Virus record (IMG/VR): IMGVR_UViG_3300025010_000004 | Coordinates: 1 to 64,000 of that record | DNA length: 64,000 nucleotides | Reading direction: 5' to 3' (one strand) | From: a virus | Part shown: positions 10,286 to 64,000 of the stretch, piece by piece | Layout: each line of letters opens with the position of its first letter | Numbering within the stretch: the stretch's first letter is position 1 | Position numbers and translations under genes: made by a program | Notes under the pieces: model-generated | The model's database searches: none | Seen by the model: only the letters and a program-made list of their open reading frames with translations | Told to the model about the DNA's origin: nothing

Positions 10286-13200
10286 ATGAGATTATTCTTT
10301 ATAAGTATATTTTTGCTCCTCCTAACCAGCAACGCCTGGGGAGCATCTATTACCAACGCCACCGGCCAGGCCGCAGGCACCTATAACTGGTCAGATTCGG
10401 CCACATGGCAGGGCGGCGTTATTCCGGGTCACGACAGCAACGCAAACAGCGACACCGTTATCATCAACGCCCCGGCCAGCGGCGTCATCACTCTTATCAT
10501 CGACCAAAATCTGACCATCGGCAATCCGGCAGACAACACCACGTTCGGGGTTTTGGTTAAAGGGGTTTCAGCAACCAATTACGTGCGGCTGCAGGTTGCC
10601 GACGGCGTGACGGTAACGTTTACCGGGCTCACCAATTACGGACTCAATCAGGGCTATCCTCTGAAAGTTGAGCGGTACGGCCGATTCGAGCCACAACCGG
10701 GCAGCGCGGTAGCGATGGACTCGGCCAGTGAAATGCAAAACATGGCGCTGATACAGGGCACCGTCTACGCCGTCGGCACGGCTGACAAAAAAATAACCTT
10801 TACCTCCCCGGCTGCCCGCGTCAATTGGAACAACAGCGGCACCACTACCCTGACAACCGCCCACGAAAAACAGTATTGGGTGGATAAAAACATCATCAAC
10901 ATCAAACTCGACCGCGACTGGATAGCCAATGCAGACGGCACCGGTCCCGGCGACGACTCGGCTACCGGCAGCACGTCAATAAACGTCTCGGCGATGGCCC
11001 CGGCGGGTTTATTCACAACCCGCAAAAATTACCAATTGGACGCCAACGGTTTGCCCGATCCGACCAACCTTACCGAGGTCGGGGATTATTCCATTAATCA
11101 CGACATGGGACAGATATTTGTCAAAGTAACCGATCAGAACTATGCCGCCATCTCCGCGACTATCGCCTATAAATACCTCACCTATACCGGCTGGGGCATC
11201 AAGCTGCTGGAGAATACCACCTACAACGAAGGCTTTTTTGAACACTGCAATTTTGAGTACATGGGTTTTTACACCACAGCGTTAGGTTCCAACTATGGCG
11301 GAATTACTGTCAGATATAAAAACAGCGCAGCCAGCGCAGCCGACCGTCTATTCAGGTTTGCTAACAACCGGGTAAGGTACTCGGCCTCGTTCCTCGGCCT
11401 TCGGGCGCTGACCGGCACGGCTGCCGACCCGATACTGATTGCCAACAATGATTTTGGTGCCGTCTATGCCGTATCGAGCGCGTTTGCCACTCTTAATTTT
11501 TACGCTGAGGCCAGCGCTTACGTAGCCTTGCGCGACAATCTGGTTAAGACATACCGCTATTTTGTCTCTTCCGGAGGTTACAGCGCGATTCCTATACCGT
11601 TGTCAAATTTTACATTTACCGGCAACAAAATTGCCGCGGCGCAATTGTGGGAGGCAAAGCAGTATGGCGGCGCTCCGATGCCGGATCTGGACATGTCTGG
11701 CAACTATCTGCACGGTTTCGGCTCGTCCGCCATTGCCTCGTCTCTCGTGTATATCAAACATATTTACGGAACTGCCGGCCACCCGGTGCTGATTCATCAC
11801 AACGAGTTCGCCCATAATTACCGGACGATTCTGCACGAGTCGCATATAAAAATTTATGGCAACAATTTTAGGAACTGCAACAAACACTCAAATATGATGG
11901 CCGCATCTAGCCTGGACGAGTACTTATCCGACGTTGATTTTTACAATAACGTGGCGTGGGGTCACGGCATCAGCATCAACACCTCCGGGTTATTCCAGCT
12001 TGGTTATAACAATCGCGTATGGGTGGACAATATCAGGTGTAAAAACAATACGCTGTATAACGCAATCAACGGCTTGGAGTTGTCAGACCTCGACATAGGC
12101 GGCTCTGGCACCACCAACATCGTAACCGTGGGCACCAATATCGAGTATGACAACAACATTGTCCACTCCATGACCACCAACGGCGTGCAGGTGGGGCTGG
12201 GCTGGAACTCCCGTTACAACCGTACCCGGCTGCACCTGGTCAGCCTCGACAACAATATTGTGTACAACTCCGGCTCTGCAGCCTATCTCAATGTTACCCC
12301 CGGCACGTTTACGTGGGGCGGGGAACGGTACAATCTGGCGGCAACGCGCAATGTTGAAGGGGTCGCACTTCATTCGGCCAGCTACAGCAGTCCGCAAACC
12401 AACAAAGCCCTGGCGTTGACAGTAACCACACCCGGCAGTGACGAAACACTGGCATGGGATGGCGGCACGGCTATCCAATTGGTGCAGGGCACCGGCTCGT
12501 TCACCAGCGCCGGAACTAATCCGGCTGACGGTTCCAGTGGTCGAACTCCGTTCGGCACGGTCACCGACGCCGCAAAAACCTGGCAGGTTGACGATTTTCG
12601 GGATACTGACATCAACACCGTAACCAGCCCGTCGGCAATGTGGATCAAAATCACCTCTGGCACCGGCGCGGGGCAGATCCGCATGATTGCCCACACAGCC
12701 AGTGCTACCACATTGAGGATTGTCCCAGCCTGGGACACGCTGCCGCAGGTGGGCGACACCTACACCATTTACAAATCAATGGTGCAGTTGACCGACGGGG
12801 CTGGGACAAATACTATTATGGCCGGTATTGATCTCCGTACCTTACCTACCACCTCACAGACCGACACCGGTATCTCGTGGGCCAACAACAGCCTGACCAG
12901 TGACCCACTGCTGGCGAATCCTGCATCGCTGTCCACCAGCGTTAATGACTACAAAATCACCGCAGGCTCACCGGCCATTGACGCGGGAACGTCACTCAAT
13001 GCCCCTGCCACCGACTATTTTGACACTTCACGCACTACTGCTGATATTGGGTTTTTTGAGTTTGTGTCGGCAGCAAACACCACCTTCGCCGCCTCCGGTA
13101 CGGTTTCAGGCATCGGTACCAGTGACACAATCAGCACTATCCAGATCATCTGGCAACTAAGTGGGACCGATGCAAACGAATCTGCCGCTATATCAGCGGG

Positions 13201-13384
13201 CAGGACAGTATCGTTAACTGAGTCCTCAGATGTATCAGCTTTTCAGGGGTCAGGTTACAACGTATCCATCTCTAAATTGGGGGCGGGAACCTACACGCCA
13301 AAAGTAAGAGTTATCGAAAATAGAGGCGCAGGCGGCAACGTTACCGGGGGCTGGACCGCTGGCAGCAATTTTGTAATTCCGTAA
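10286..13384 (+). CDS. Large secreted parallel beta-helix protein (pectin-lyase-like fold, G8-like N-terminus)
   Basis: Signal peptide MRLFFISIFLLLLTSNAWGA; WSDSATWQGGVIP; N-x-[FI]-x-NN beta-helix repeats; SPAIDAG...ADIGFFE C-terminal motif. Confidence 0.65.
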   Translation: MRLFFISIFLLLLTSNAWGASITNATGQAAGTYNWSDSATWQGGVIPGHDSNANSDTVIINAPASGVITLIIDQNLTIGNPADNTTFGVLVKGVSATNYVRLQVADGVTVTFTGLTNYGLNQGYPLKVERYGRFEPQPGSAVAMDSASEMQNMALIQGTVYAVGTADKKITFTSPAARVNWNNSGTTTLTTAHEKQYWVDKNIINIKLDRDWIANADGTGPGDDSATGSTSINVSAMAPAGLFTTRKNYQLDANGLPDPTNLTEVGDYSINHDMGQIFVKVTDQNYAAISATIAYKYLTYTGWGIKLLENTTYNEGFFEHCNFEYMGFYTTALGSNYGGITVRYKNSAASAADRLFRFANNRVRYSASFLGLRALTGTAADPILIANNDFGAVYAVSSAFATLNFYAEASAYVALRDNLVKTYRYFVSSGGYSAIPIPLSNFTFTGNKIAAAQLWEAKQYGGAPMPDLDMSGNYLHGFGSSAIASSLVYIKHIYGTAGHPVLIHHNEFAHNYRTILHESHIKIYGNNFRNCNKHSNMMAASSLDEYLSDVDFYNNVAWGHGISINTSGLFQLGYNNRVWVDNIRCKNNTLYNAINGLELSDLDIGGSGTTNIVTVGTNIEYDNNIVHSMTTNGVQVGLGWNSRYNRTRLHLVSLDNNIVYNSGSAAYLNVTPGTFTWGGERYNLAATRNVEGVALHSASYSSPQTNKALALTVTTPGSDETLAWDGGTAIQLVQGTGSFTSAGTNPADGSSGRTPFGTVTDAAKTWQVDDFRDTDINTVTSPSAMWIKITSGTGAGQIRMIAHTASATTLRIVPAWDTLPQVGDTYTIYKSMVQLTDGAGTNTIMAGIDLRTLPTTSQTDTGISWANNSLTSDPLLANPASLSTSVNDYKITAGSPAIDAGTSLNAPATDYFDTSRTTADIGFFEFVSAANTTFAASGTVSGIGTSDTISTIQIIWQLSGTDANESAAISAGRTVSLTESSDVSAFQGSGYNVSISKLGAGTYTPKVRVIENRGAGGNVTGGWTAGSNFVIP

Positions 13385-14337: not shown

Positions 14338-14566
14338 GAAACTAAAAGATATACTTGCCGGGTTTATTGAGGATAAGAAAACATCAACTGCAGGAGTAGT
14401 CCCATTGGCCGGAGCAGCGGCTATGGCCTATGGTATGTATACAGGGGCAGTTCCTATTACGTACGAGAACGTCGGTATAGTTGCAACTGGAGCTTCTACT
14501 GGTATAGGACTTTTATTTGCAAAAGATTCAGCAAAGAAGAAGAGAGTGCCAAGGAAGAAGAAATAA
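14330..14566 (+). CDS. Putative holin
   Basis: Two hydrophobic segments, GLLFAKD motif, strongly basic C-terminus; last gene of the late operon. Confidence 0.6.
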   Translation: MGKKLKDILAGFIEDKKTSTAGVVPLAGAAAMAYGMYTGAVPITYENVGIVATGASTGIGLLFAKDSAKKKRVPRKKK

Positions 14567-14567
14567 G

Positions 14568-14600
14568 AAAAGCCCCTCAACTAAAGTTGAGGGGCTTTTT
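14568..14600. terminator. Bidirectional rho-independent terminator
   Basis: AAAAGCCCCTCAAC-TAAA-GTTGAGGGGCTTTTT between convergent operons. Confidence 0.9.
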
Positions 14601-14631
14601 AGTTATCGCTACGGGAATTAACGTAGCGTTA

Positions 14632-15093
14632 CTAGTAATCTTTTCCTTTTTTAAGTATCTTTTGGTTTGAGCTTGCTAAGGTAACTCCATATACTGTATC
14701 GAAATTTCCTTTAAGCTCGTCTATGTATCTACCAGTTTTAATATAGTCGAATTGGTTTCTAATACTAAAGTCAATCTCTGCTATAATCTTACGCGTAAAC
14801 AGCCACGTCTTAAGCCCTGCATTTTTAAGTTTTTCAGCCAATTCAAGCAGCTCTTTAGTAGGCTGCTCTGTAGGCTCGCCGCCCATAAACATAACTTGAG
14901 TAACTAGCCTAGGGTTTTCTTTTGATTTACTTATTAAGTACGCGCTTAGTTCTTCTACTGATACCTCGTCACCTTTAGTAGGGTCATGCGTTTCTGGGTT
15001 GTGACAATTAAAACAATGTGGGCCTGAGCAGCCTGCGAAATAAATGTCAATAGATAGTGAGGATAAGGAGTATTGGGTAGTAAGTATCCTCAT
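14632..15093 (-). CDS. nrdG: Anaerobic ribonucleotide reductase activating enzyme
   Basis: Radical SAM GCSGPHCFNCHNP, GGEP, YIKTGRY, LASSNQ; adjacent to nrdD. Confidence 0.9.
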   Translation of the reverse strand: MRILTTQYSLSSLSIDIYFAGCSGPHCFNCHNPETHDPTKGDEVSVEELSAYLISKSKENPRLVTQVMFMGGEPTEQPTKELLELAEKLKNAGLKTWLFTRKIIAEIDFSIRNQFDYIKTGRYIDELKGNFDTVYGVTLASSNQKILKKGKDY

Positions 15094-17021
15094 TATAGTT
15101 TAACCTTCTCTGCTTTGTAGAACTGTCTATTTGGGTAGTCTTCTTCTCGCCTTACCTGATTCCAGTATTTAACGTTGGTAAGAAACCCAACAACCCTCGT
15201 AAAGTTATCTGCAACATCAGCCCCACATATTGAACACTTCGTATCTTTACCTATACTCATATGGTCATTTACACATCGCTGTATATTGTAGTTAATAGCA
15301 AAATAAACAACCCCCTGCTTGGCACACGTCTTAATAAGATCTACTATCTTATTGTGGTCATTTATCCTTTCTTCTACATTTAGGTGACATATAGCACCGC
15401 CTGAAAAGTGACTGTCAAACAACCCCTGAAGCTTGATTCTATCTAACAAATCAGCCTTAGTAACTAGAGGAATAAACTGATTGCTGTAGATATCGTACTT
15501 ATCATTAAACCCTAGAAGTCTGTCTTTAGCAGCCAATTTAATCGAACTGCTTTCTCCTGGGATTTGTTCACAGTTATGTGGAGTCTTGTACAACTTCTGG
15601 TATTTGTCATTTTCAAGGTTAATAGTTTCTAGAAGAGCTACTACAAAATCTTGCCCGTCACTTTCTAGAATATTGTACCCCATAATTTCACAGCATTCAT
15701 TAAGCCCGTTAACTCCTAAAGTGGAGTATTGTCTTGATAACTCCATAAAACCTAGTGAGTAGAGCGGTAAATTTCCACTTTCAATCCTCTTCTTAATTAT
15801 GGTTCTTTTAGTGTGGTTAACTTTAGCAGCCACCCCTACTAGTTCTTTTAACTCACTAAAGAAGTGTGTTTCTCTTTCTACGCTGTTACTTATTTTAGCT
15901 GCTCTCGTAGCCAGCTTGGGTAAATTTACAGAAACCACCCCAAGAGACCCTATCTTGGAACTACCGCTTCCGAATGAGTTGAAGTACTCATTATCCATTT
16001 CGGATCTTAAACGGCAGCATGAGCTAAGCATCGAGGATTTGCCTATGTAGATGTTGATAAACCCATAGGCCATGTTTTTCTTTGCAATGAACTCGGCAAA
16101 GGTATTGTCTAGTAGTTCCTTCTGGTCGTTTATTGTAAAGCAGGCAGTCACTATAGGAAAAGTAATCGGGGTGCGCTCCATTTCTTTATTCATTACATCT
16201 AGAAACAACTCTTGTAGTTGCTCGACCACATATATAGTAGGGGTGCTCCCATCCGGGAATACGTAGTTCGGGCAAAGGCTTTCTAAGAAAGGCCTGTCGA
16301 ATATAGACACATTTGTAAAGCACGATTGGGAACCTCTTGAGGGTTGTCCAAGAGTGTAAATTAGACTTACTATAGTCTCTTTTACGTATTTCCAGCATGA
16401 GGCTTCATCCTTGAATTCAAAGCCTGCATCTTTTTTATCAGTCAGAATTTTCTCTACATAATAACTCATAACTATGAACAAATCCGCCAGGCCGGTGGCC
16501 CCTAGGGTTGAGTTCGCCGCAATTATAGTGAATTGTTCCACCTGGCTTTTGAAGCTGTACAGGTATTTAGGAGCAATTGATTTAATCTTATCGACCATCG
16601 GGAGACCTAAAAGTGAAATATCGTAAGTGCTGTAATTAAAACAATAGGGACTCCCTGCAGCGATGCCGTGAGCATCATGAAAATAAACATTACCTGATAT
16701 TTGATCTTCCATAGCTGAGTTAGCTATAGCAGCCCCATAAAGCTTCTTCATATTTTTCCATAGCATATAGTAACTATTTAGTTTTAAAAAAGGCTTTGGC
16801 AACTCCAAGCTGTATGCTATATTGCTGTTGTCAGACATATTAGCGTTGGAGTCTATACTGGCATCGGCAGTAGTAGCTGCAGCGAAGAACTCTTTTGAAA
16901 ATTTTGACATGTCAAGTTGCTTGCCGATACCGTCGATATCAAACAACTTTTGCCCGTATTTAGATTTTAGGTACATCATTAAGTCTACAAATTCTTGGTC
17001 GTACGTTTGGTGAATATACAT
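15093..17021 (-). CDS. nrdD: Class III anaerobic ribonucleoside-triphosphate reductase (no ATP cone)
   Basis: YFHD...YC, SSCCRL, QIPGES, FSGGAI, C-terminal Zn site and glycyl loop TRVVGFL. Confidence 0.92.
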   Translation of the reverse strand: MYIHQTYDQEFVDLMMYLKSKYGQKLFDIDGIGKQLDMSKFSKEFFAAATTADASIDSNANMSDNSNIAYSLELPKPFLKLNSYYMLWKNMKKLYGAAIANSAMEDQISGNVYFHDAHGIAAGSPYCFNYSTYDISLLGLPMVDKIKSIAPKYLYSFKSQVEQFTIIAANSTLGATGLADLFIVMSYYVEKILTDKKDAGFEFKDEASCWKYVKETIVSLIYTLGQPSRGSQSCFTNVSIFDRPFLESLCPNYVFPDGSTPTIYVVEQLQELFLDVMNKEMERTPITFPIVTACFTINDQKELLDNTFAEFIAKKNMAYGFINIYIGKSSMLSSCCRLRSEMDNEYFNSFGSGSSKIGSLGVVSVNLPKLATRAAKISNSVERETHFFSELKELVGVAAKVNHTKRTIIKKRIESGNLPLYSLGFMELSRQYSTLGVNGLNECCEIMGYNILESDGQDFVVALLETINLENDKYQKLYKTPHNCEQIPGESSSIKLAAKDRLLGFNDKYDIYSNQFIPLVTKADLLDRIKLQGLFDSHFSGGAICHLNVEERINDHNKIVDLIKTCAKQGVVYFAINYNIQRCVNDHMSIGKDTKCSICGADVADNFTRVVGFLTNVKYWNQVRREEDYPNRQFYKAEKVKL

Positions 17022-17114: not shown

Positions 17115-17864
17115 TTATTTAACTTTTGTGGCAACTTTCTTAGCTACTTTGCGCTTGCTTATCGGGGTTACATCGAGCCCCCTAGGAACTACCGCGTCAA
17201 CAAGACCCCATTTAACCGCTTCTTCTGCTGTAATATACCAGTCTTGTTTTTTAGCATGTAGTTCATCAAGTCTCTTTTGGGTGACTCTACTCTTCTCTAC
17301 AATGATACTATCAATAACCTTCTGGTCTTTTGCCAGTTGGTCTGCGTTATCCTTATGGTCTTGCAGCTTTCCATAGCCTGGAAAATTTGCTATACTGTGG
17401 GCCATAAGTGCGCAAAAAGAATATGCGTACCGGGCGTGCCCAGATATTAGAATTAGAAATGCCATTGACGCGGCCTGCCCTTGTGCTACAGTTACCACAG
17501 GGGTTTTTGATTGGTAGATCGCGCTCACTACTGCAAGGCCGTCTGTAACGTAACCTCCGGGGCTATTTATAAATAAAGTTATAGGGTTGTATAATCTGTT
17601 ATACCCTACTTCCCTAGCAGTCAGTTCTTCATCTTCACTATTGAAACGCTCTATCGCCATAACAGCTTTTTCAATCCATGTTTCATCTACAGGGCCATTT
17701 AGAATTATTTGCCTGTTAGCTAGATGCTCTTTGTAAACATCAGTGGCTATATTGCCTGTGCTTAAAAGCTCCTGCGGGTTACACCCCTGTGCTACCGAAA
17801 CCTCCTTTACGTTCGGTTTCGTCAAGTTCATCAACTGCCACAAATTTTGCTTGTATATATTCAT
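17115..17864 (-). CDS. clpP: ClpP-family serine protease (start uncertain)
   Basis: [16 protein letters not shown] (Ser), LMAHS (His), [16 protein letters not shown]. Confidence 0.85.
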
Positions 17865-48180: not shown

Positions 48181-49761
48181 TTACCCTACCTCTTCCGTGA
48201 AGTCCTCCCACCCAGCCGGAAGATCGGCGTAGCGAGGCTTGACCTTAGCGCCTACCTCTTTACCTTTGCGCTTGGCGTCGCATGCCGTACAAAGTTCTTC
48301 CCCATCAGCTCTGTACTTATTGTGGTACATTTCTCCACAATCTTGGCACTTGAACGCAACACCCCCAAGACAGTTATTGCAAACCCTGCCGACGTATTTG
48401 TGGTAAGTTACGTTATCCGTTAGATGGTACAGGCCACACACAGAACAATGCATAAACTTAGGTACGCATTCACCGCACACTTTACCGACACCGGCAAGCT
48501 CTTTTAGTTTACGTGTGTCTTCTTTAAGGCCACAATGTGAGCACAAAGTAAAGTGTTTTTTGTCGCATGCTGTACAAACGTTTCTGCCTTTAATAACAGT
48601 AACATTTCCTTTTTCGTGCCACTCACCACAATACGAGCAGTTACTGTACTTAGCATCAGTGCAGCGCTTGCATATAAGCTGGTTATGTACAGTGTTCATG
48701 GTGTCCATGTTATGGCGCTCTCCGCACACTTCACACGTTCCCCTAGCCTTACCGTAGTGGCCTCGGCAGGTTCCGCCTTGTTTGTATGTGGTTGTAATTC
48801 CACACTCAAGGCACATAGCTGGGGCAAACTGTAAAACTGGCATTTCGTACGCCACCTTAGCCGGGTAAGAAAGATCTATCCCATAGTTGTCAAAATAGAG
48901 TGCTGCGGTGTAGTGGTGATCTTCTGCCGTTGCGTACTTAATTTTACCAGGCGTAAAAGTAATACCGTGCTTAGTAAGGAATTCATTTTCAATCCCAAAT
49001 TTTGCCGATACCTTTTCTTCAAGGAATGCTCTGGCGGCATCACGCTCAAACCCGAAATATGCACCATAAGATTTTGGCTGCACGATGTACCCTTTGTCCG
49101 TAATAGCCATCCAGGTTCTTCCGAGCTTGTATATCTCGGCGTCTGTCATTTTAGCCGTCTCCTTAGCTATAAATGAGATCAGCGATATGCCGTCAGAGGC
49201 GTAGGCAATGTTTCCGTTGTAGTTTTCATGCCCAAAACTGTGGCACGAGCTAAAGGCGGCGTTGTCGGAAGCTGTAAGAAAATCTAGCAGATTGGTAGAA
49301 ACTACGAGCTTCCTGCCAGATTTTATAACGTCTCCTAGCCTCGGCAGAAACTGCTTGCGGTTACTGAGCTTAAGTTCAGGGGCGCAATATTCGATTATCT
49401 CGTCATTGTCCTCAAGCTGCTTGGCAAGAATTTTAGATATCTTACCCGGCTGGCCTTTCATAATAATCTCATTTTTAACCAGAGATATAGTAGAAAGGTC
49501 AATCTGATTACCCTTTTGCACAGCCTGATGCAGTAGATGCGCAACAACAGAGTAAGCAACAGGGTAATCCTTCCGCAGCATCTGTTCAGATTTGACCATA
49601 GGGATCTCAACGCGAAACATGTTGTCTTCGTTAAGCCCAACCATAGCGTCGATTTCAGCCTTAGCCTTGCGCATTGTGGCATACACTTTGTCAAGCGCGC
49701 CTGTAGGAATCCTGCGCTTTCGCAAAACCAATTCAATAGTTTTCAGCATTTCTTTGTTCAT
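48181..49761 (-). CDS. Phage protein with SC-motif domain and tandem CxxC Zn-finger repeats
   Basis: DFLTAS...FSSCH...YASD; about ten CxxC pairs in the C-terminal third. Confidence 0.65.
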   Translation of the reverse strand: MNKEMLKTIELVLRKRRIPTGALDKVYATMRKAKAEIDAMVGLNEDNMFRVEIPMVKSEQMLRKDYPVAYSVVAHLLHQAVQKGNQIDLSTISLVKNEIIMKGQPGKISKILAKQLEDNDEIIEYCAPELKLSNRKQFLPRLGDVIKSGRKLVVSTNLLDFLTASDNAAFSSCHSFGHENYNGNIAYASDGISLISFIAKETAKMTDAEIYKLGRTWMAITDKGYIVQPKSYGAYFGFERDAARAFLEEKVSAKFGIENEFLTKHGITFTPGKIKYATAEDHHYTAALYFDNYGIDLSYPAKVAYEMPVLQFAPAMCLECGITTTYKQGGTCRGHYGKARGTCEVCGERHNMDTMNTVHNQLICKRCTDAKYSNCSYCGEWHEKGNVTVIKGRNVCTACDKKHFTLCSHCGLKEDTRKLKELAGVGKVCGECVPKFMHCSVCGLYHLTDNVTYHKYVGRVCNNCLGGVAFKCQDCGEMYHNKYRADGEELCTACDAKRKGKEVGAKVKPRYADLPAGWEDFTEEVG

Positions 49762-50007: not shown

Positions 50008-50433
50008 TTACTTCCACCCCTTCTCTTCAAGTAGCCGTCTGAAGCGCGCTGCTTGTTCTTTTGCTTCAATAACTAGCTTGGCTTCTTCTACTTCCCGCGC
50101 AGCAATCGCTTCGTCGGTAAAGTAGGTGTTGTACTTTTTTACTGCTATTTTTAGCTTCTTCCAGCCATCTGCGTGAATAACACAGGACCTAGACGGATGC
50201 CCTACTGGTGCGTTTAGTAAGTCTCTAGACAGCACCCTAAACTCAGCACCAGTAGTTGGGCCTGGTCGGCCATACGAAGAGCTGGCAAGTCTGAACTTTG
50301 TAGTAGATATAAATCTTCGACTTTTATCTCCGAAATCTACGTAAGCGTGCGTCTGCTCCAGTATAGTTACTCTACAAAGTTCGAAATTATGCTCCGGGAG
50401 TAATTCTCCTTTAATCTTAATGTGCTTTGCCAT
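50008..50433 (-). CDS. EQTH-family paralogue 5 (helical C-extension)
   Basis: KHIKIKG...ILEQTH..DFG...WKKLKIAVKKYNTYF. Confidence 0.75.
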   Translation of the reverse strand: MAKHIKIKGELLPEHNFELCRVTILEQTHAYVDFGDKSRRFISTTKFRLASSSYGRPGPTTGAEFRVLSRDLLNAPVGHPSRSCVIHADGWKKLKIAVKKYNTYFTDEAIAAREVEEAKLVIEAKEQAARFRRLLEEKGWK

Positions 50434-50452: not shown

Positions 50453-50477
50453 AGGCTGCGCTTAATAAGCGCAGCCT
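50453..50477. terminator. Hairpin after paralogue 6
   Basis: AGGCTGCGCTTA-A-TAAGCGCAGCCT. Confidence 0.55.
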
Positions 50478-50493
50478 TTACTCATCCGTAGTA

Positions 50494-50838
50494 TTACCCG
50501 ATAATTACCGTGCATACATCCGCTTTTTTCGGAGCCGGTGCAGGCACACATGCGAAGTACTTGTTATAGGCTTCGACAGCGGCTTTGAATTTGGCGTAGG
50601 TGGTTATGGGCATGGTGAGGGTGTAGTTGTTGCGGTAGGCGTTGTGGCCGCGAACAAAAACTTTATTGGCACCATCTACCTCAGGGTAAGCTGCGCTAGC
50701 AATGGTAAACCCACAGTGGGTAAACCTATCACTGCAGTCCCCGAAGTTGCTGTTAATATGAGTTTGCGAAAGGATCTGAACTTTTACAGTCTGGAAATCA
50801 GGAGCCACCGGGGTTACTTTACACGTAATTTTTTTCAT
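50494..50838 (-). CDS. EQTH-family paralogue 6 with C-terminal ADVCTVIIG tail
   Basis: ILSQTHI..NFG...FVRG...FKAAVEAYNKYF-PAPAPKK-ADVCTVIIG*. Confidence 0.8.
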   Translation of the reverse strand: MKKITCKVTPVAPDFQTVKVQILSQTHINSNFGDCSDRFTHCGFTIASAAYPEVDGANKVFVRGHNAYRNNYTLTMPITTYAKFKAAVEAYNKYFACVPAPAPKKADVCTVIIG

Positions 50839-50862
50839 TAATTTTCCTCCTTGGAATGTTGT

Positions 50863-50882
50863 GGGGCCGCTTAGGCGGCCCC
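50863..50882. terminator. Hairpin after paralogue 7
   Basis: GGGGCCGC-TTAG-GCGGCCCC. Confidence 0.55.
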
Positions 50883-50896
50883 TGTGTGAAATAGAA

Positions 50897-51247
50897 TTAG
50901 CCGACGATTACAGCACACGCATCAGCTTTGGGAGCCGGTGGAGCACAGACAGCGTTTACACGGTTGTACTCTTTGACCGCCTCAACAACTTTCGCCCACA
51001 GCTTTTTGCCAACAACGACGGTGTTTCCGTTTTTGGCAGCGTCGGACCCACGGAGCCAGATGGTGTTATTGTCATCTTTGTCACGGGCGGGGTGCTTGTT
51101 GGAACCGAGGACGATTCCGTTGGAAGCGCGGAACTTGTTGCTGTAGCCCTTACCGAAGGCGTATCCGGTGTGGGTCTGCTCGGTAACATTAAACATGACC
51201 TTATTGTAGTTCGGGTTCACCACGGCCTGAAGTATAACTTTTTTCAT
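50897..51247 (-). CDS. EQTH-family paralogue 7 with C-terminal ADACAVIVG tail
   Basis: VTEQTH...FG...FRASNG...WLRG...VEAVKEYN-PPAPK-ADACAVIVG*. Confidence 0.8.
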   Translation of the reverse strand: MKKVILQAVVNPNYNKVMFNVTEQTHTGYAFGKGYSNKFRASNGIVLGSNKHPARDKDDNNTIWLRGSDAAKNGNTVVVGKKLWAKVVEAVKEYNRVNAVCAPPAPKADACAVIVG

Positions 51248-51295
51248 GAGAATTCCTCCTTTGTCTTTCGGGCATAGCCCTACAGTTAACTTGGT

Positions 51296-51327
51296 AGGAG
51301 GCTAACCGACTCCGCCGGAAGCCTCCT
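51296..51327. terminator. Hairpin after paralogue 8
   Basis: AGGAGGCT-N16-AGCCTCCT. Confidence 0.4.
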
Positions 51328-51367
51328 TGTATATAAATTTATTCAGTTGTTCGCTACTGTGTTAATA

Positions 51368-51769
51368 TTAGCCGATGATTACAGCGCAGAAATCAGCAGG
51401 CTGTGCCGCAGGCTTACGCGGTGCCGGAGCCTTGGGAGCTGCATAGCAGCGAGGATCTGCGAAATCGAAGGCATTGTACTCTTTAACAGCAGCGACGATT
51501 TTTTCCCACTCAGCTTTGGTACATTCAACTGCGGAATCGTTGCTTTTCGCCTTGGAGCCACGCAGCCAGATAACGTTCTTCTCATCTGTGTCGCGTGCCG
51601 GGTGGCTGTTGGAAGCAAGAACGATGCCGTTGCTGGCAACGAACTTACGGGGGTCAAGGCTCCGCACGTCACCGAAGTCGCGTCCTTTGTGTGTCTGCTC
51701 CAGCACTTTAAAGAGCACCTTCGTAAAGTTGGGAACGACTTGTGCGGTAATCTTGATGTGTTTTCTCAT
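51368..51769 (-). CDS. EQTH-family paralogue 8 with C-terminal ADFCAVIIG tail
   Basis: AAGGAGG RBS, MRKHIKI...VLEQTH...FVASNG...WLRG...VAAVKEYN...ADFCAVIIG*. Confidence 0.8.
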   Translation of the reverse strand: MRKHIKITAQVVPNFTKVLFKVLEQTHKGRDFGDVRSLDPRKFVASNGIVLASNSHPARDTDEKNVIWLRGSKAKSNDSAVECTKAEWEKIVAAVKEYNAFDFADPRCYAAPKAPAPRKPAAQPADFCAVIIG

Positions 51770-51802
51770 GGTAAATCCTCCTTTTGTTTGTATGCTGTTT
51801 AG

Positions 51803-51818
51803 GTAGAACAAGTTCTAC
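51803..51818. promoter_or_regulatory. 16-bp palindrome site 10
   Basis: GTAGAACAAGTTCTAC. Confidence 0.8.
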
Positions 51819-51832
51819 CTTCCCAACAGTGG

Positions 51833-52402
51833 TTAATGTTTATTCCTGTTTCCTCCGAAGTAGACCTTTTGATAGGCACGCTCCGCGCGCCAAGGCTCTA
51901 CTTTTTCTTTAGCCGGTCTTTCCTTAACAGGAACACCAACCTTTTTGACTGCTGCGCTTATGGAACTCTTTTCTTTTTCTGGTTCTTTTACATCATGAAA
52001 CTCGTTGTACGCTTTTACCGCCTGCTTGAACCGATCATAGGTTTCTTTGCCAAGCTCGAACGATACTTTTCCTACATCGCTAGGACGAAACAAAAGAACT
52101 ACACAGGTTCGATAGTGCAGACCTGGCTCATATTCACTAATTCTACCAAGCTCCAGAGAATACAAGTTAAGAGCATCTTCACCCTCAACTTTGTGGTTGA
52201 ACACCTTAGACTTGTCGTTAAAATTTTCACCAAAATGAGTCTGTTCGGTTATAGTCACCTTAACGGTTTCAAATAACGGAGGTGTTATTTCCGCCTTATA
52301 TTTTATGTGTCTTCTAACTTTTTTAGTAACAAAAGCACCTGTAACCCATTCGTACCGTTCAGGGTAAGTCTCTCCCTCATGGTAGGTGTAGTATTTATAC
52401 AT
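51833..52402 (-). CDS. EQTH-family paralogue 9 (N- and C-extensions)
   Basis: RHIKYKA...ITEQTHFG.NF...FKQAVKAYNEF. Confidence 0.75.
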   Translation of the reverse strand: MYKYYTYHEGETYPERYEWVTGAFVTKKVRRHIKYKAEITPPLFETVKVTITEQTHFGENFNDKSKVFNHKVEGEDALNLYSLELGRISEYEPGLHYRTCVVLLFRPSDVGKVSFELGKETYDRFKQAVKAYNEFHDVKEPEKEKSSISAAVKKVGVPVKERPAKEKVEPWRAERAYQKVYFGGNRNKH

Positions 52403-52413
52403 TTTAGCCCTCC

Positions 52414-52677
52414 CTATGTAAAGATGTAGCCACTAATTTTCAACAGCGCCCTACAGGATTTACATAGGTCCGAAAAAGAAGATACCTCTTCTCCATTTTC
52501 GTCTGCGTCGCCGACAGTGGCTCCATCGTCTGAATAGTAACTTCCTTTACAGCACCAACATCCTTTCTTGTCGGAGTGCTCTCTGCCATTAACCCTTTCA
52601 ACGAATGGGTCTTCTGATGTTTCTCCTACTTCTAGGATTGGGTTTTCCTTGTTAAATTTATTAAGATCAAAGTCCAT
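52414..52677 (-). CDS. Small Cys-containing protein
   Basis: CWCC...CKSC. Confidence 0.5.
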   Translation of the reverse strand: MDFDLNKFNKENPILEVGETSEDPFVERVNGREHSDKKGCWCCKGSYYSDDGATVGDADENGEEVSSFSDLCKSCRALLKISGYIFT

Positions 52678-52717: not shown

Positions 52718-53311
52718 TTACCCTTTATCTGAAAATAAGTCCAGTTGTAGCTCAGATTTGGGCTCCTCAGCTATGGTTTCTTTTTCTATGACAGGGGCAA
52801 TATAGTCCTCTATCTTAAATTTCTTAGCTGCGGTCTTTAGAGGAGGCGAATATCCCCAACTTAACGGTTTTTCCTGCGCCAGAAATTTGGACAATTTGAG
52901 CTTAGGCATGCGGGGCACGGTCAAATCTTTTTTGTCGTACATGTAAATTTTACATGCGTTAGCTATGCTGTCCTCCATAGAGCCTCTAGTAACCAGGAGA
53001 TTTAGCCTCTCTGCTTCTATGAAAATGGCCCACATATCACGCTTGAAATCAGCGCGTATTGCTTCAGGCACGTAATCGTAACTGCATACCCACAATTTAC
53101 ACTGCAGTGCCTTTACAGTGCATCCCCCAATCCCAAGGTATTTACAGTTAACGCAGCAGAAGTTTTCTCCTTCCCTTCTACGATGACGCTCGCAAGCTCC
53201 GCCGCTAATATGGCATGGATCGTAGTCAACCAGAAGTTGCAAAGTTCTATCATACAGATTGTTGAAAATAGGGATGAGCTTTTTAGCGTAGTCGTATTCT
53301 CCTACTGGCAT
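52718..53311 (-). CDS. Cys-cluster (Zn/Fe-S chelating) protein
   Basis: C...C...CC..CKYL...GC...L.CKLW.C. Confidence 0.55.
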   Translation of the reverse strand: MPVGEYDYAKKLIPIFNNLYDRTLQLLVDYDPCHISGGACERHRRREGENFCCVNCKYLGIGGCTVKALQCKLWVCSYDYVPEAIRADFKRDMWAIFIEAERLNLLVTRGSMEDSIANACKIYMYDKKDLTVPRMPKLKLSKFLAQEKPLSWGYSPPLKTAAKKFKIEDYIAPVIEKETIAEEPKSELQLDLFSDKG

Positions 53312-61979: not shown

Positions 61980-62068
61980 TTTTTAGTTAATAAAAAATGC
62001 TTATATTCGGTATATAATACATATAGGAGCAGTTGGATTCGGCTCAAATAACTTATACTGGAGACGCG

Positions 62069-63325
62069 ATGAACCATTTTTACGTTTACTGCTACACAAA
62101 CCCAACAAAACCTGGAAGGTTCACTTTCCCTAATACAAATCTTTCTTTTCTATATGAACCTTTTTACATCGGTAAAGGTGCTTTAGATAGGATGTATAAT
62201 CATGTTAATGAGTCAATTAAAAAGAAAAATAAAACATGGAAAAATAAAACAATTTTATCTATATTAGAATCTGGGTACAATCCTAAAGACTTTGCATTTA
62301 AGCTGGCTGTACAATTAACAGAGGAGGAGGCATACTCAGTAGAGGAAACGTTAATAGCCACTATCGGCAGGCTGTCTACTAGAAAAGGCCCACTACTTAA
62401 TATACGAACTGGCGGGTTAGGGAGTAGTAATAAAAGTTATTGGAAAACAACTAATAAACTAACCCCAATACAAGAATACGAATGTGTATCTTTATACTTA
62501 AATGGTGAATCTATTAGTACATTATCAGCTAGGTTTGGGTTATTTAAAACCGCCATCCGAGGTATATTACTACGGCACGATGTAACAATAGTACGTAAAC
62601 CCACAGAAAAAAGAAGCAAGACTTTAAGTCTCATCCCAAATATTCTAGAAGACTACGAAAACGGTATGTCATCTATAAAAATAGGACAAAAATACTGTAT
62701 ATCAAAACGCACTGTATTATCAGAGCTTAGGAAAGCAGGAGTAACTATGAAAGAGCCTGCTTTCTATAAGACTATAAAAGATGAAGATGTACCTAATATA
62801 AGAGCCGCCTTTTTACGTGGAGAACGTGTAGAAGCTTTGGCCAAAAAATATAAAGTATCCACTAATACTATAAATAGGGCTATTCGTTATAATGAAGTAG
62901 TAACAGCAACTGGAAAATTAAAAATTAAAACTAACATTACCAGGCATAACCTGCTTAAAAAACTAACCGAAGACCAAGAATATCAACTAGGTCAAGACTA
63001 CATAGCTGGTATGTCATCTAGTGAATTAGCAGCAAAGTATAACGTTTTCTACACAACAGCCCTAGCAATTTTGAAACGACTCAACATACAAACTAGGCCT
63101 AGTTCAACACCAGACAAAACAACAATTGACCTAACACCAGAAGTTATAGAAATGTACCAGTCAGGACTAAGCTCTCTCGATATATTCAGAAAGTTGCCAG
63201 TAAGTCGCAACACAATTTTACGCATTCTTCACAGAAATAATGTACCACTTAGGCAAAGTGGAAAGCAGCCTACTAAGGTTATAGGTAGTAGTGATGCAGA
63301 AGAACTTGATGCTATGATGCAATAG
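62069..63325 (+). CDS. GIY-YIG (LEM3-like) homing endonuclease with about five tandem HTH repeats
   Basis: FYVY...PFYIGKG..R..H, E..LI..IGR..GPLLN; repeated Y..G.S...LA.KY; AT-rich and opposite strand to its neighbours. Confidence 0.75.
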   Translation: MNHFYVYCYTNPTKPGRFTFPNTNLSFLYEPFYIGKGALDRMYNHVNESIKKKNKTWKNKTILSILESGYNPKDFAFKLAVQLTEEEAYSVEETLIATIGRLSTRKGPLLNIRTGGLGSSNKSYWKTTNKLTPIQEYECVSLYLNGESISTLSARFGLFKTAIRGILLRHDVTIVRKPTEKRSKTLSLIPNILEDYENGMSSIKIGQKYCISKRTVLSELRKAGVTMKEPAFYKTIKDEDVPNIRAAFLRGERVEALAKKYKVSTNTINRAIRYNEVVTATGKLKIKTNITRHNLLKKLTEDQEYQLGQDYIAGMSSSELAAKYNVFYTTALAILKRLNIQTRPSSTPDKTTIDLTPEVIEMYQSGLSSLDIFRKLPVSRNTILRILHRNNVPLRQSGKQPTKVIGSSDAEELDAMMQ

Positions 63326-63344: not shown

Positions 63345-63377
63345 AGGGAAGGCTAGCCATAAACACAAGCCTTCCCT
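63345..63377. terminator. Hairpin between convergent genes
   Basis: AGGGAAGGCT-N13-AGCCTTCCCT. Confidence 0.5.
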
Positions 63378-63409: not shown

Positions 63410-64000
63410 TTATCCGATCACAACAGCACAGGCGTCCACCGGTACTTCTATTGCTTTTGCAGGCGCAGCACATTTCTTCGATGCAGCGTAAACTTCGTTG
63501 TATTCTTTGACTGCATCTGCGAGCTTCTTGAAAGTGGCCGCAGGAACACGCATGACGTTGTTGTCCGAGCGGTTATCGGTTCCTCGCAGATATAGTTCGT
63601 TATGACCTATGCTGTAAAACGCTGGAGATGTATCGCTCAAAAGCTTGAACCCATTCGAGGCCACAAAATAGTTTGCATTTTCAGAAAAATCTTTTCGAAT
63701 GTGCGTCTGCTCAAGAACCTGAACATCCACAAACTGAAAGTCGGGGCCAACCGGAGTGCCGGAGATCTTGATGTGGCGCGGGTCGAAGGAGAAGAAGGCG
63801 TTGTAGGCTTCGACGGCAGCTTTGATCTTGACGTATGTAGCAACTGGTACGGCTATGGTTCGGTGGTCCAGATCGCGCCGAGTTCCACGTACATACAGAA
63901 GACCCCCATAGAGAGCCAAAGCCCCTTGACTACTAAGAGTGAACCCATCGTGCTTGAATTCCTCACCACAAGTACCGAATTCAGCTCCCCTGTGGCTCTG
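63410..64000 (-). CDS. EQTH-family paralogue 13: at least two tandem domains plus VDACAVVIG tail; 5' end outside the window
   Basis: Frame open to 64000: QSH..EFG...YVRG...IKAAVEAYNAFF, then RHIKI...VLEQTH...YLRG...AVKEYN...VDACAVVIG*. Confidence 0.8.
   Translation of the reverse strand, partial: QSHRGAEFGTCGEEFKHDGFTLSSQGALALYGGLLYVRGTRRDLDHRTIAVPVATYVKIKAAVEAYNAFFSFDPRHIKISGTPVGPDFQFVDVQVLEQTHIRKDFSENANYFVASNGFKLLSDTSPAFYSIGHNELYLRGTDNRSDNNVMRVPAATFKKLADAVKEYNEVYAASKKCAAPAKAIEVPVDACAVVIG

Follow-up and report, generated by a model that had tools for sequence, protein, structure and literature searches.

Four genes in a 64,000-nucleotide stretch of viral DNA (the window, positions 1 to 64,000 of the IMG/VR virus record IMGVR_UViG_3300025010_000004) encode proteins of the EQTH family that end in a conserved six-residue hydrophobic peptide, which starts with a cysteine and closes with a glycine. 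EQTH is a large, phage-specific family that lacks any annotation and has been expanded to 14-28 genes per genome. To judge from its sequence pattern, the tail is a true short linear motif, required at the free C-terminus and placed on a spacer of arbitrary length and sequence from an EQTH domain of about 100 amino acids (aa). We see an even chance that it functions as a docking peptide with a free C-terminus, which tethers an abundant subset of the EQTH proteins to one common receptor. The support for docking comprises protein-level selection on the tail, its strictly terminal position, a variable spacer and conservation across about 50% proteome divergence. It further includes genome-specific variants of the tail and co-segregation of the tail with codon bias in both phages compared and with a ribosome-binding site (RBS) and a 3' hairpin in the window phage. 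A six-residue terminal peptide that is kept across deep divergence is a tractable handle to the partner of these proteins and to the role of EQTH in infection.

The tagged EQTH genes of the window phage and their expression signals

The window is part of a complete virus record of 113,294 bp (genome G000), which has 14 EQTH genes. The tagged genes among them are:

50494..50838, minus strand: T1, tagged EQTH gene, 114 aa; tail CTVIIG at 50497-50514, the last codons, after the linker ACVPAPAPKKADV
50897..51247, minus strand: T2, tagged EQTH gene, 116 aa; tail CAVIVG at 50900-50917
51368..51769, minus strand: T3, tagged EQTH gene, 133 aa from the ATG at 51769; tail CAVIIG at 51371-51388
63410-64075 (window part 63410..64000), minus strand: T4, tagged tandem two-domain EQTH gene, 221 aa; tail CAVVIG at 63413-63430

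The C-termini at 50494, 50897, 51368 and 63410 read ADVCTVIIG (T1), ADACAVIVG (T2), ADFCAVIIG (T3) and VDACAVVIG (T4), exactly as had been given in an earlier note made from the window's sequence alone. A search with that note's pattern, DxC[AT]V[IV][IV]G, through every stop-to-stop frame in the six frames of the 113,294-bp genome returned these four genes and nothing else. The set of four thus stands, with the amendment that T4 extends past the window end to its true start at 64075 and encodes two tandem domains, only the second of which is followed by the linker and tail. All four linkers are rich in Pro, Ala and Lys, with the longest AP-rich linker being that of T3, and each of the four, rather than several as had been noted, has a second Cys at its start. 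The other three domains show 55%, 33% and 35% identity to that of T2, and the last eight residues match those of T2 at 6, 5 and 6 positions. This bears out the view that the tail is better conserved (5-6 of 8 residues) than the domain to which it is attached (33-55% identity).

The tagged genes also differ from their untagged paralogues in signals of expression. When the 149 genes of the genome were ranked by their frequency of C-ending codons (C3), T1-T3 reached 0.37-0.44 (ranks 1, 5 and 6), with T2 being the highest of all, and T4 reached 0.28, against a genome mean of 0.21 (standard deviation 0.06); the capsid gene has a C3 of 0.28. G-ending codons (G3) are not raised in the tagged genes, so that the earlier claim of GC-richer synonymous sites holds for C-ending codons and not for GC in general. 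In the related phage described below, C3 is 0.40-0.60 in the three tagged genes vs 0.11-0.24 in 25 untagged paralogues, and the C-ending bias of the tagged genes is extreme, with GC at third codon positions up to 0.85. An AAGGAGG RBS precedes each of the four tagged genes of the window phage, including T4 whose start lies outside the window; of the nine untagged paralogues that were checked in the window none has it, and genome-wide it is seen at 25 of the 149 genes. Likewise, a stable GC stem-loop is present after each tagged gene at the positions claimed for it, with folding energies of -21 to -32 kcal/mol and z-scores of -2.5 to -5.2. All four stem-loops lack a U-tract and none was called as a terminator. 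Strong hairpins are also seen 3' of two of the three tagged genes of the related phage. The division of the family into tagged and untagged classes, as originally proposed, is therefore matched by differences in codon usage in two phages, and in the RBS and 3' hairpin in the window phage. These signals suggest that expression of the tagged genes is among the strongest in these phages. The individual elements are:

50846-50852, minus strand: AAGGAGG ribosome-binding site of T1
51255-51261, minus strand: AAGGAGG ribosome-binding site of T2
51777-51783, minus strand: AAGGAGG ribosome-binding site of T3
50453..50477, minus strand: GC-rich stem-loop of 11 bp, 3' of T1 (z -3.4); no U-tract, not called as a terminator
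50863..50882, minus strand: GC-rich stem-loop of 8 bp, 3' of T2 (z -5.2)
51296..51327, minus strand: stem-loop 3' of T3 (z -2.5)
63345..63377, minus strand: stem-loop 3' of T4 (z -3.6)

Distribution of the tail in the EQTH family and in a related phage

When 1.84 billion proteins were searched with a profile constructed from the EQTH paralogues, 1,164 representative clusters matched at E<=1e-3, some of them with up to five domain repeats. We inspected 154 proteins, namely the window's own proteins, four relatives from word searches and the best profile matches out of the 1,164 clusters. In this set the ending C-x4-G was counted 36 times and C-x4-Q twice, and a further four proteins close with hydrophobic residues and Gly but lack Cys at position -6; among the best 150 metagenomic relatives, the proportion with a C-[AST]-[VYT]-[IV]-[IV]-G terminus is about one in four. 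The consensus of the tail is [A/P]-C-[A/S/T]-[V/Y/T]-[I/V]-[I/V]-G-COOH; the relative P0013, for example, has the tail CSEIVG. A logo of 43 unique tails gives A/P/S at -7, C at -6, A/S/T at -5, V (or Y, T, E) at -4, I/V/T at -3, I/V at -2 (I, V or L in 43 of 43) and G at -1 (41 of 43). The pattern D-x-C-[AT]-V-[IV]-[IV]-G of the earlier note is valid for the four genes of the window phage, but the general motif is looser: Asp at -8 occurs in only 11 of the 43 tails and is, by this distribution, a lineage-specific residue outside the general motif. Aligning 33 tagged proteins leaves five columns without any variation, the tail Cys among them, and shows the terminal Gly in at least 90% of the sequences; counted over 47 tails, the Cys is retained in 43.

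The tail is strictly terminal. Across 32,464 residues of family proteins 39 copies of the motif are terminal and none is internal, and in tandem proteins it follows the last domain only, with the internal domains always lacking it. The spacer between the final YN motif of the domain and the tail ranges from 15 to 60 aa, and is either Ala/Pro-rich or a long Ala/Arg/Gln helical segment. About 70% of the family members have no tail, and most members stop directly after the helix (YNEYFKE). On the family tree the tail is clustered, requiring 18 parsimony changes vs 42 with shuffled labels, and is present in at least three domain clades. A second recurrent tip, of the acidic-hydrophobic form ...E[IV]IE or FIIE, is seen in the relatives P0010, P0018, P0024, P0097, P0123, P0130 and P0143. 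The untagged window genes 50008-50433 and 51833-52402 have C-terminal extensions that are conserved in their orthologues.

The earlier note had further regarded the tail as a portable signal, a suggestion which is not supported: no non-EQTH open reading frame (ORF) of either complete genome carries it. Two scans of IMG/VR with degenerate DNA patterns gave 1 and 17 matches and no credible non-EQTH protein, with the 17 lying in frames of <=51 aa and the single match lying in a different frame inside a longer ORF. A comparable scan of 185,579 prokaryote genomes (GTDB) gave 22 matches, none with a linker or family context. As these GTDB and IMG/VR scans yielded no credible carrier, they give no sign that the tail mimics the ending of a host protein family. 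Because the tail is absent from non-EQTH ORFs and from these scans, and is clustered on the family tree, it is best seen as a trait of EQTH sub-lineages rather than a signal common to other types of proteins.

Only one related phage (G001) and one distant locus came up when IMG/VR, JGI metagenomes and GTDB genomes were scanned with profiles and proteins. G001 is an IMG/VR relative of 113,142 bp that is collinear with the window phage, with 39 long orthologues at a median identity of 48%, and has 28 EQTH genes as against 14, of which three are tagged and 25 untagged:

Loci L003-L008 of G001, e.g. L003:2443-3165, 14445-14921 and 14963-15442: EQTH genes

Its tails are of a variant form CS[YF]..G, namely CSFILG on a tandem protein, and CSYIIG and CSYVIG on the other two. 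The tagged genes are syntenic with those of the window phage, being situated between the orthologues of 52414-52677 and 50008-50433, with the tandem gene being the counterpart of T4; the linkers in the two phages are unrelated. All tails of the window phage have D at -8, A/T at -5, V at -4 and the second Cys, whereas all those of G001 have S at -5, Y/F at -4 and no second Cys. Thus, the tails are alike within a genome and different between genomes, though the domains bearing them fall in different clades of the family tree. Pairs from one genome have 3.4 of six variable tail positions in common, vs 1.65 of six for pairs from different sources matched for domain distance (nominal P 0.001). Such genome-specific variants are the pattern expected from one receptor common to all tagged paralogues of a phage.

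The codons of the tail vary synonymously, with TGC and TGT for Cys, GTA and GTT for Val, GGG, GGC and GGA for Gly and GAT and GAC for Asp in the window phage, and TCC, TCG and AGC for the tail Ser in G001. As synonymous tail codons differ, selection on the tail acts at the protein level; the conserved item is the peptide itself, as a selected discrete module. A DNA-level repeat was rejected on account of the same synonymous differences. We likewise assign next to no probability to the tail being an ending without separate function that was left from a recent duplication or gene conversion. T1-T3 are indeed adjacent genes, and T2 and T3 have four of their last six tail codons in common. Nevertheless, such an origin is already contradicted by the low identity of the domains (33-55%) next to tails with 5-6 of 8 residues in common, by synonymous differences all along the tails, and by the wide persistence of the motif, which is kept in relatives with 27-58% domain identity and in a phage whose proteome is about 48% identical, and extends over the three or more domain clades mentioned above.

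Fold of the EQTH domain and proposed docking of the tail

In the AlphaFold model of T2, residues 1-99 form a confident beta-sheet with a C-terminal helix, at a predicted local distance difference test (pLDDT) score of about 90, while the linker and tail, modelled from a mixed alignment, are coil with a pLDDT of 56-59. Since the domain occurs without the tail in most members of the family and in the internal positions of tandem proteins, the tail is not an integral strand of the domain, an alternative that had been raised in the earlier note. Scans of tagged and untagged paralogues with Pfam, PHROGs and NCBIfam gave no match, and neither did a profile search of the PDB or a tblastn search with T2 against 50,697 isolate phage records. 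Foldseek against the PDB and VIA-align wide found nothing significant (best Z 4.0, with weak PH-like hints); SspB was absent from their matches, ClpS reached Z 2.5 and there was no beta-grasp match. A search of BFVD returned only uncharacterised phage proteins, one of the ESM Atlas gave no usable match, and a literature search on the name EQTH returned nothing relevant. A five-repeat relative has a weak match to the Cap15 receptor domain (E 0.009), which is below the cut-off.

If the tail is a docking peptide, its four hydrophobic residues and the terminal carboxylate would bind a groove on the receptor as an extended or beta strand, with one receptor serving all tagged paralogues of a phage. 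This receptor may belong to the phage or to the host, or may be an EQTH domain. The highly expressed EQTH subset would be tethered at the site of the receptor, and its diverse domains would be delivered or displayed there; the binding would take place in trans. Several points weigh against such docking. It leaves the invariance of the Cys unexplained. The genome-specific tail variants come from two genomes, and the compared pairs are few and not independent. The AlphaFold model of T3, made with a tagged-only alignment of 33 sequences, pairs AVII (129-132) as a beta strand in the same chain, with a pLDDT of 51-61. Because of this same-chain pairing, the groove could sit on the EQTH domain itself.

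That last point leads to an alternative which we regard as possible though unlikely, namely that the tail adds as an edge beta strand to the EQTH domain, either in cis as a latch or lid, or in trans by strand exchange that would give homo- or hetero-oligomers. The paired strand of the T3 model is consistent with the tail being a reversible latch or taking part in intermolecular strand exchange, and assembly in trans among paralogues would account for both the genome-specific variants and the very high expression. Furthermore, the six tails with an aromatic residue at -4 all belong to proteins with Val at column 9 of beta1, as against 0 of 33 others. However, this association was noticed post hoc and ranks only about 18th (z 2.9) in an unbiased mutual-information scan, and the low-scoring strand of the T3 model has no counterpart in the mixed-alignment model. 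Moreover, long helical spacers, reaching to about 60 aa past the YN motif, would be needless for docking in cis, and both the untagged paralogues and the internal domains fold without the tail.

Possible links to proteases, cysteine chemistry and capsid loading, and neighbouring genes

By analogy, the architecture of the tail appears to be that of the linker-plus-tip tethers of SspB, SSB and FtsZ and of encapsulin cargo peptides, and it fits the sequence definition of none of these. EQTH has the three parts of the SSB, FtsZ and SspB type, i.e. a folded domain, a variable linker and a conserved terminal peptide. SSB and FtsZ bear tips of the acidic-aromatic (DDDIPF) or DIPxFL type on essential cellular proteins. 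As in EQTH, their low-complexity linkers are variable in length and the tip is more conserved and necessarily terminal. In contrast, the EQTH tip is composed of Cys, aliphatic residues and Gly, and is found on accessory phage proteins. SspB combines a substrate-binding domain, a flexible linker and a C-terminal ClpX-binding peptide, LRVVK. It resembles EQTH in its small beta-rich domain, long and ill-conserved linker and conserved hydrophobic C-terminal tether peptide, and the phage system also has a Clp protease. The two differ in the peptide (CxVIIG here vs LRVVK) and in EQTH being a multi-copy, phage-encoded family, and SspB was not among the matches of the fold searches.

The window phage is a distant T5-like phage, whose capsid protein shows about 25% identity to its Demerecviridae counterparts. 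A plus-strand head module at 94-100 kb encodes a portal, an S78 prohead protease and an HK97-type capsid protein. The tagged genes (50.5-51.8 kb and 63.4 kb) lie on a minus-strand arm with replication and nucleotide-metabolism genes, at a distance of 35-48 kb from the head module; among the neighbouring ORFs of this arm a ligase, NAMPT, PRPP synthetase, RtcB and GluRS can be recognized by eye only. The genes that bear on the alternatives considered below are:

Window 17115-17864, minus strand: ClpP-family protease gene in the replication arm, apart from the S78 protease
Genome 97304-98287: S78 prohead protease gene
Genome 98314-99633, plus strand: capsid gene
Window 52718-53311, 52414-52677 and 48181-49761, minus strand: three Cys-rich ORFs flanking the tagged cluster, with positions kept in G001

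A connection with a Clp-type or AAA+ protease is decidedly unlikely in our estimate; here the tail would be an SspB-like tether, a peptide docking on the ring of the phage ClpP, or a nonpolar C-terminal degron or decoy. A ClpP homologue is present in each of the two phages, at a site away from the head module, and its Ser/His/Asp catalytic context is intact and conserved. Searches for an AAA_2 unfoldase, ThiF (PF00899) and PDZ domains gave no match in the phage genome, and as the phage showed no unfoldase, its ClpP needs a partner. The order of domain, variable linker and C-terminal hydrophobic peptide is that of SspB with its ClpX-binding peptide. HslU and HbYX tails dock on protease rings through a terminal hydrophobic peptide, and the EQTH tail is similarly hydrophobic and strictly terminal (39 terminal copies, 0 internal), but it lacks the penultimate Tyr and its carrier is not an AAA+ unfoldase, none being encoded in the genome. 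Nonpolar C-termini are known degrons, reportedly from work by Parsell, Silber and Sauer in 1990. As in ssrA-like nonpolar degrons, each of the four tails of the window phage ends in five nonpolar residues, and the tail is modelled as low-pLDDT coil. Hence, of the ClpP and degron candidate of the earlier note, the presence of ClpP in the phage is upheld, while the link itself amounts to co-occurrence in two related phages only. Further, the motif is unlike LAA, LRVVK, HbYX and IGF, the invariant Cys and Gly are left unexplained, SspB was not among the matches of the fold searches and ClpS reached only Z 2.5 in them, and very high expression is ill-suited to a simple self-degron. A specific version by analogy with SspB, which we hold to be very unlikely, is that the tagged EQTH proteins are degradation adaptors, whose diversified domains would capture host or phage proteins while the tail would tether them to the phage ClpP ring or the host ClpX. 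If true, this would be a programmable system of targeted proteolysis for the phage. More generally, should the tail turn out to bind a protease or an assembly site, it could become a small protein-targeting tag in the host.

The conservation of the Cys and Gly bears on another alternative, an improbable one in our judgment, in which the tail is a site of chemistry, with the Cys thiol, with or without the Gly carboxylate, being modified or reactive. Acylation, a thioester or thiolactone, ligation of a metal or Fe-S cluster, or a redox-active swinging arm would be the options under this same low estimate. Apart from the Cys that is invariant in the 33 aligned tagged proteins and the Gly that is terminal in 41 of 43 tails, the second Cys in all four linkers of the window phage and the Cys-rich ORFs that flank the tagged cluster in both phages are in its favor. 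The largest of these ORFs has many CxxC pairs, and Pfam and PHROG scans of the three gave no match. However, the second Cys is missing in G001 and most relatives, two tails end in Gln, and no NCBIfam model of a sorting signal or precursor matched. The tail is like a CaaX box in having a Cys followed by aliphatic residues at the C-terminus, but the Cys is at -6 in 43 of 43 tails and not at -4, and the setting is a bacteriophage, in which we know of no prenyltransferase. Likewise, unlike the C-termini of ubiquitin-like proteins that are substrates of E1 enzymes, the tails consistently have an aliphatic residue at -2, and neither a beta-grasp match nor PF00899 was found. Conjugation at the C-terminal Gly had been among the earlier candidates; in its E1-type form it is disfavoured, given the lack of a Gly-Gly ending and of a ThiF-family gene in the phage genome, though a host enzyme is possible. 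Precursors of ribosomally synthesized and post-translationally modified peptides with a radical-SAM maturase offer a further comparison. Unlike in such systems, the sole radical SAM gene of the phage has no orthologue in G001, which keeps the tails, and maturation of the tail by this enzyme is therefore disfavoured. The radical SAM ORF and neighbours that look by eye like glycosyltransferases are at 87463-91745 of the genome (L011:3463-7745), in a block without a G001 orthologue.

The earlier note had also listed capsid loading or ejection among its candidates. The tail would then be comparable to the cargo peptides that bind the HK97-fold shell of encapsulins, which in Family 1 are C-terminal targeting peptides with a consensus of the SDGSLGIGSLKRS type (PMC8346489). 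This is highly improbable. The phage does have an HK97-type capsid protein and an S78 prohead protease in the same genome as the tagged proteins, which are seemingly abundant, and the layout of a domain, a flexible linker and a short C-terminal peptide is as in encapsulin cargo (PMC8346489). On the other hand, the tagged genes are far from the head module and on the opposite strand, a position that disfavours this candidate, and they are not within about 5 kb of the shell gene, as would be expected of encapsulin cargo genes. The tail also has no GSL core and is unlike the SDGSLGIGSLKRS consensus, the encapsulin pocket uses an N-terminal helix that is missing in most phage capsid proteins (PMC8346489), and no ORF of the structural module carries the tail.

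Three other features of the window deserve mention. In the gap between T3 and the untagged gene 51833-52402, a 16-bp palindrome, GTAGAACTTGTTCTAC, at 51795-51820 folds into a hairpin of 8 bp. Adjoining T4, the gene at 62033-63325 (plus strand) encodes a GIY-YIG nuclease domain with several helix-turn-helix domains, is homing-endonuclease-like, and is the lone plus-strand gene of this arm. Finally, an ORF of 1,032 aa at 10286-13384 (plus strand) has a signal-like N-terminus, a GC3 of 0.64 and a C3 of 0.42, in a region where the local GC is 0.52 vs about 0.42 for the genome, and could be a gene for a tail protein or adhesin that is strongly expressed or was acquired.

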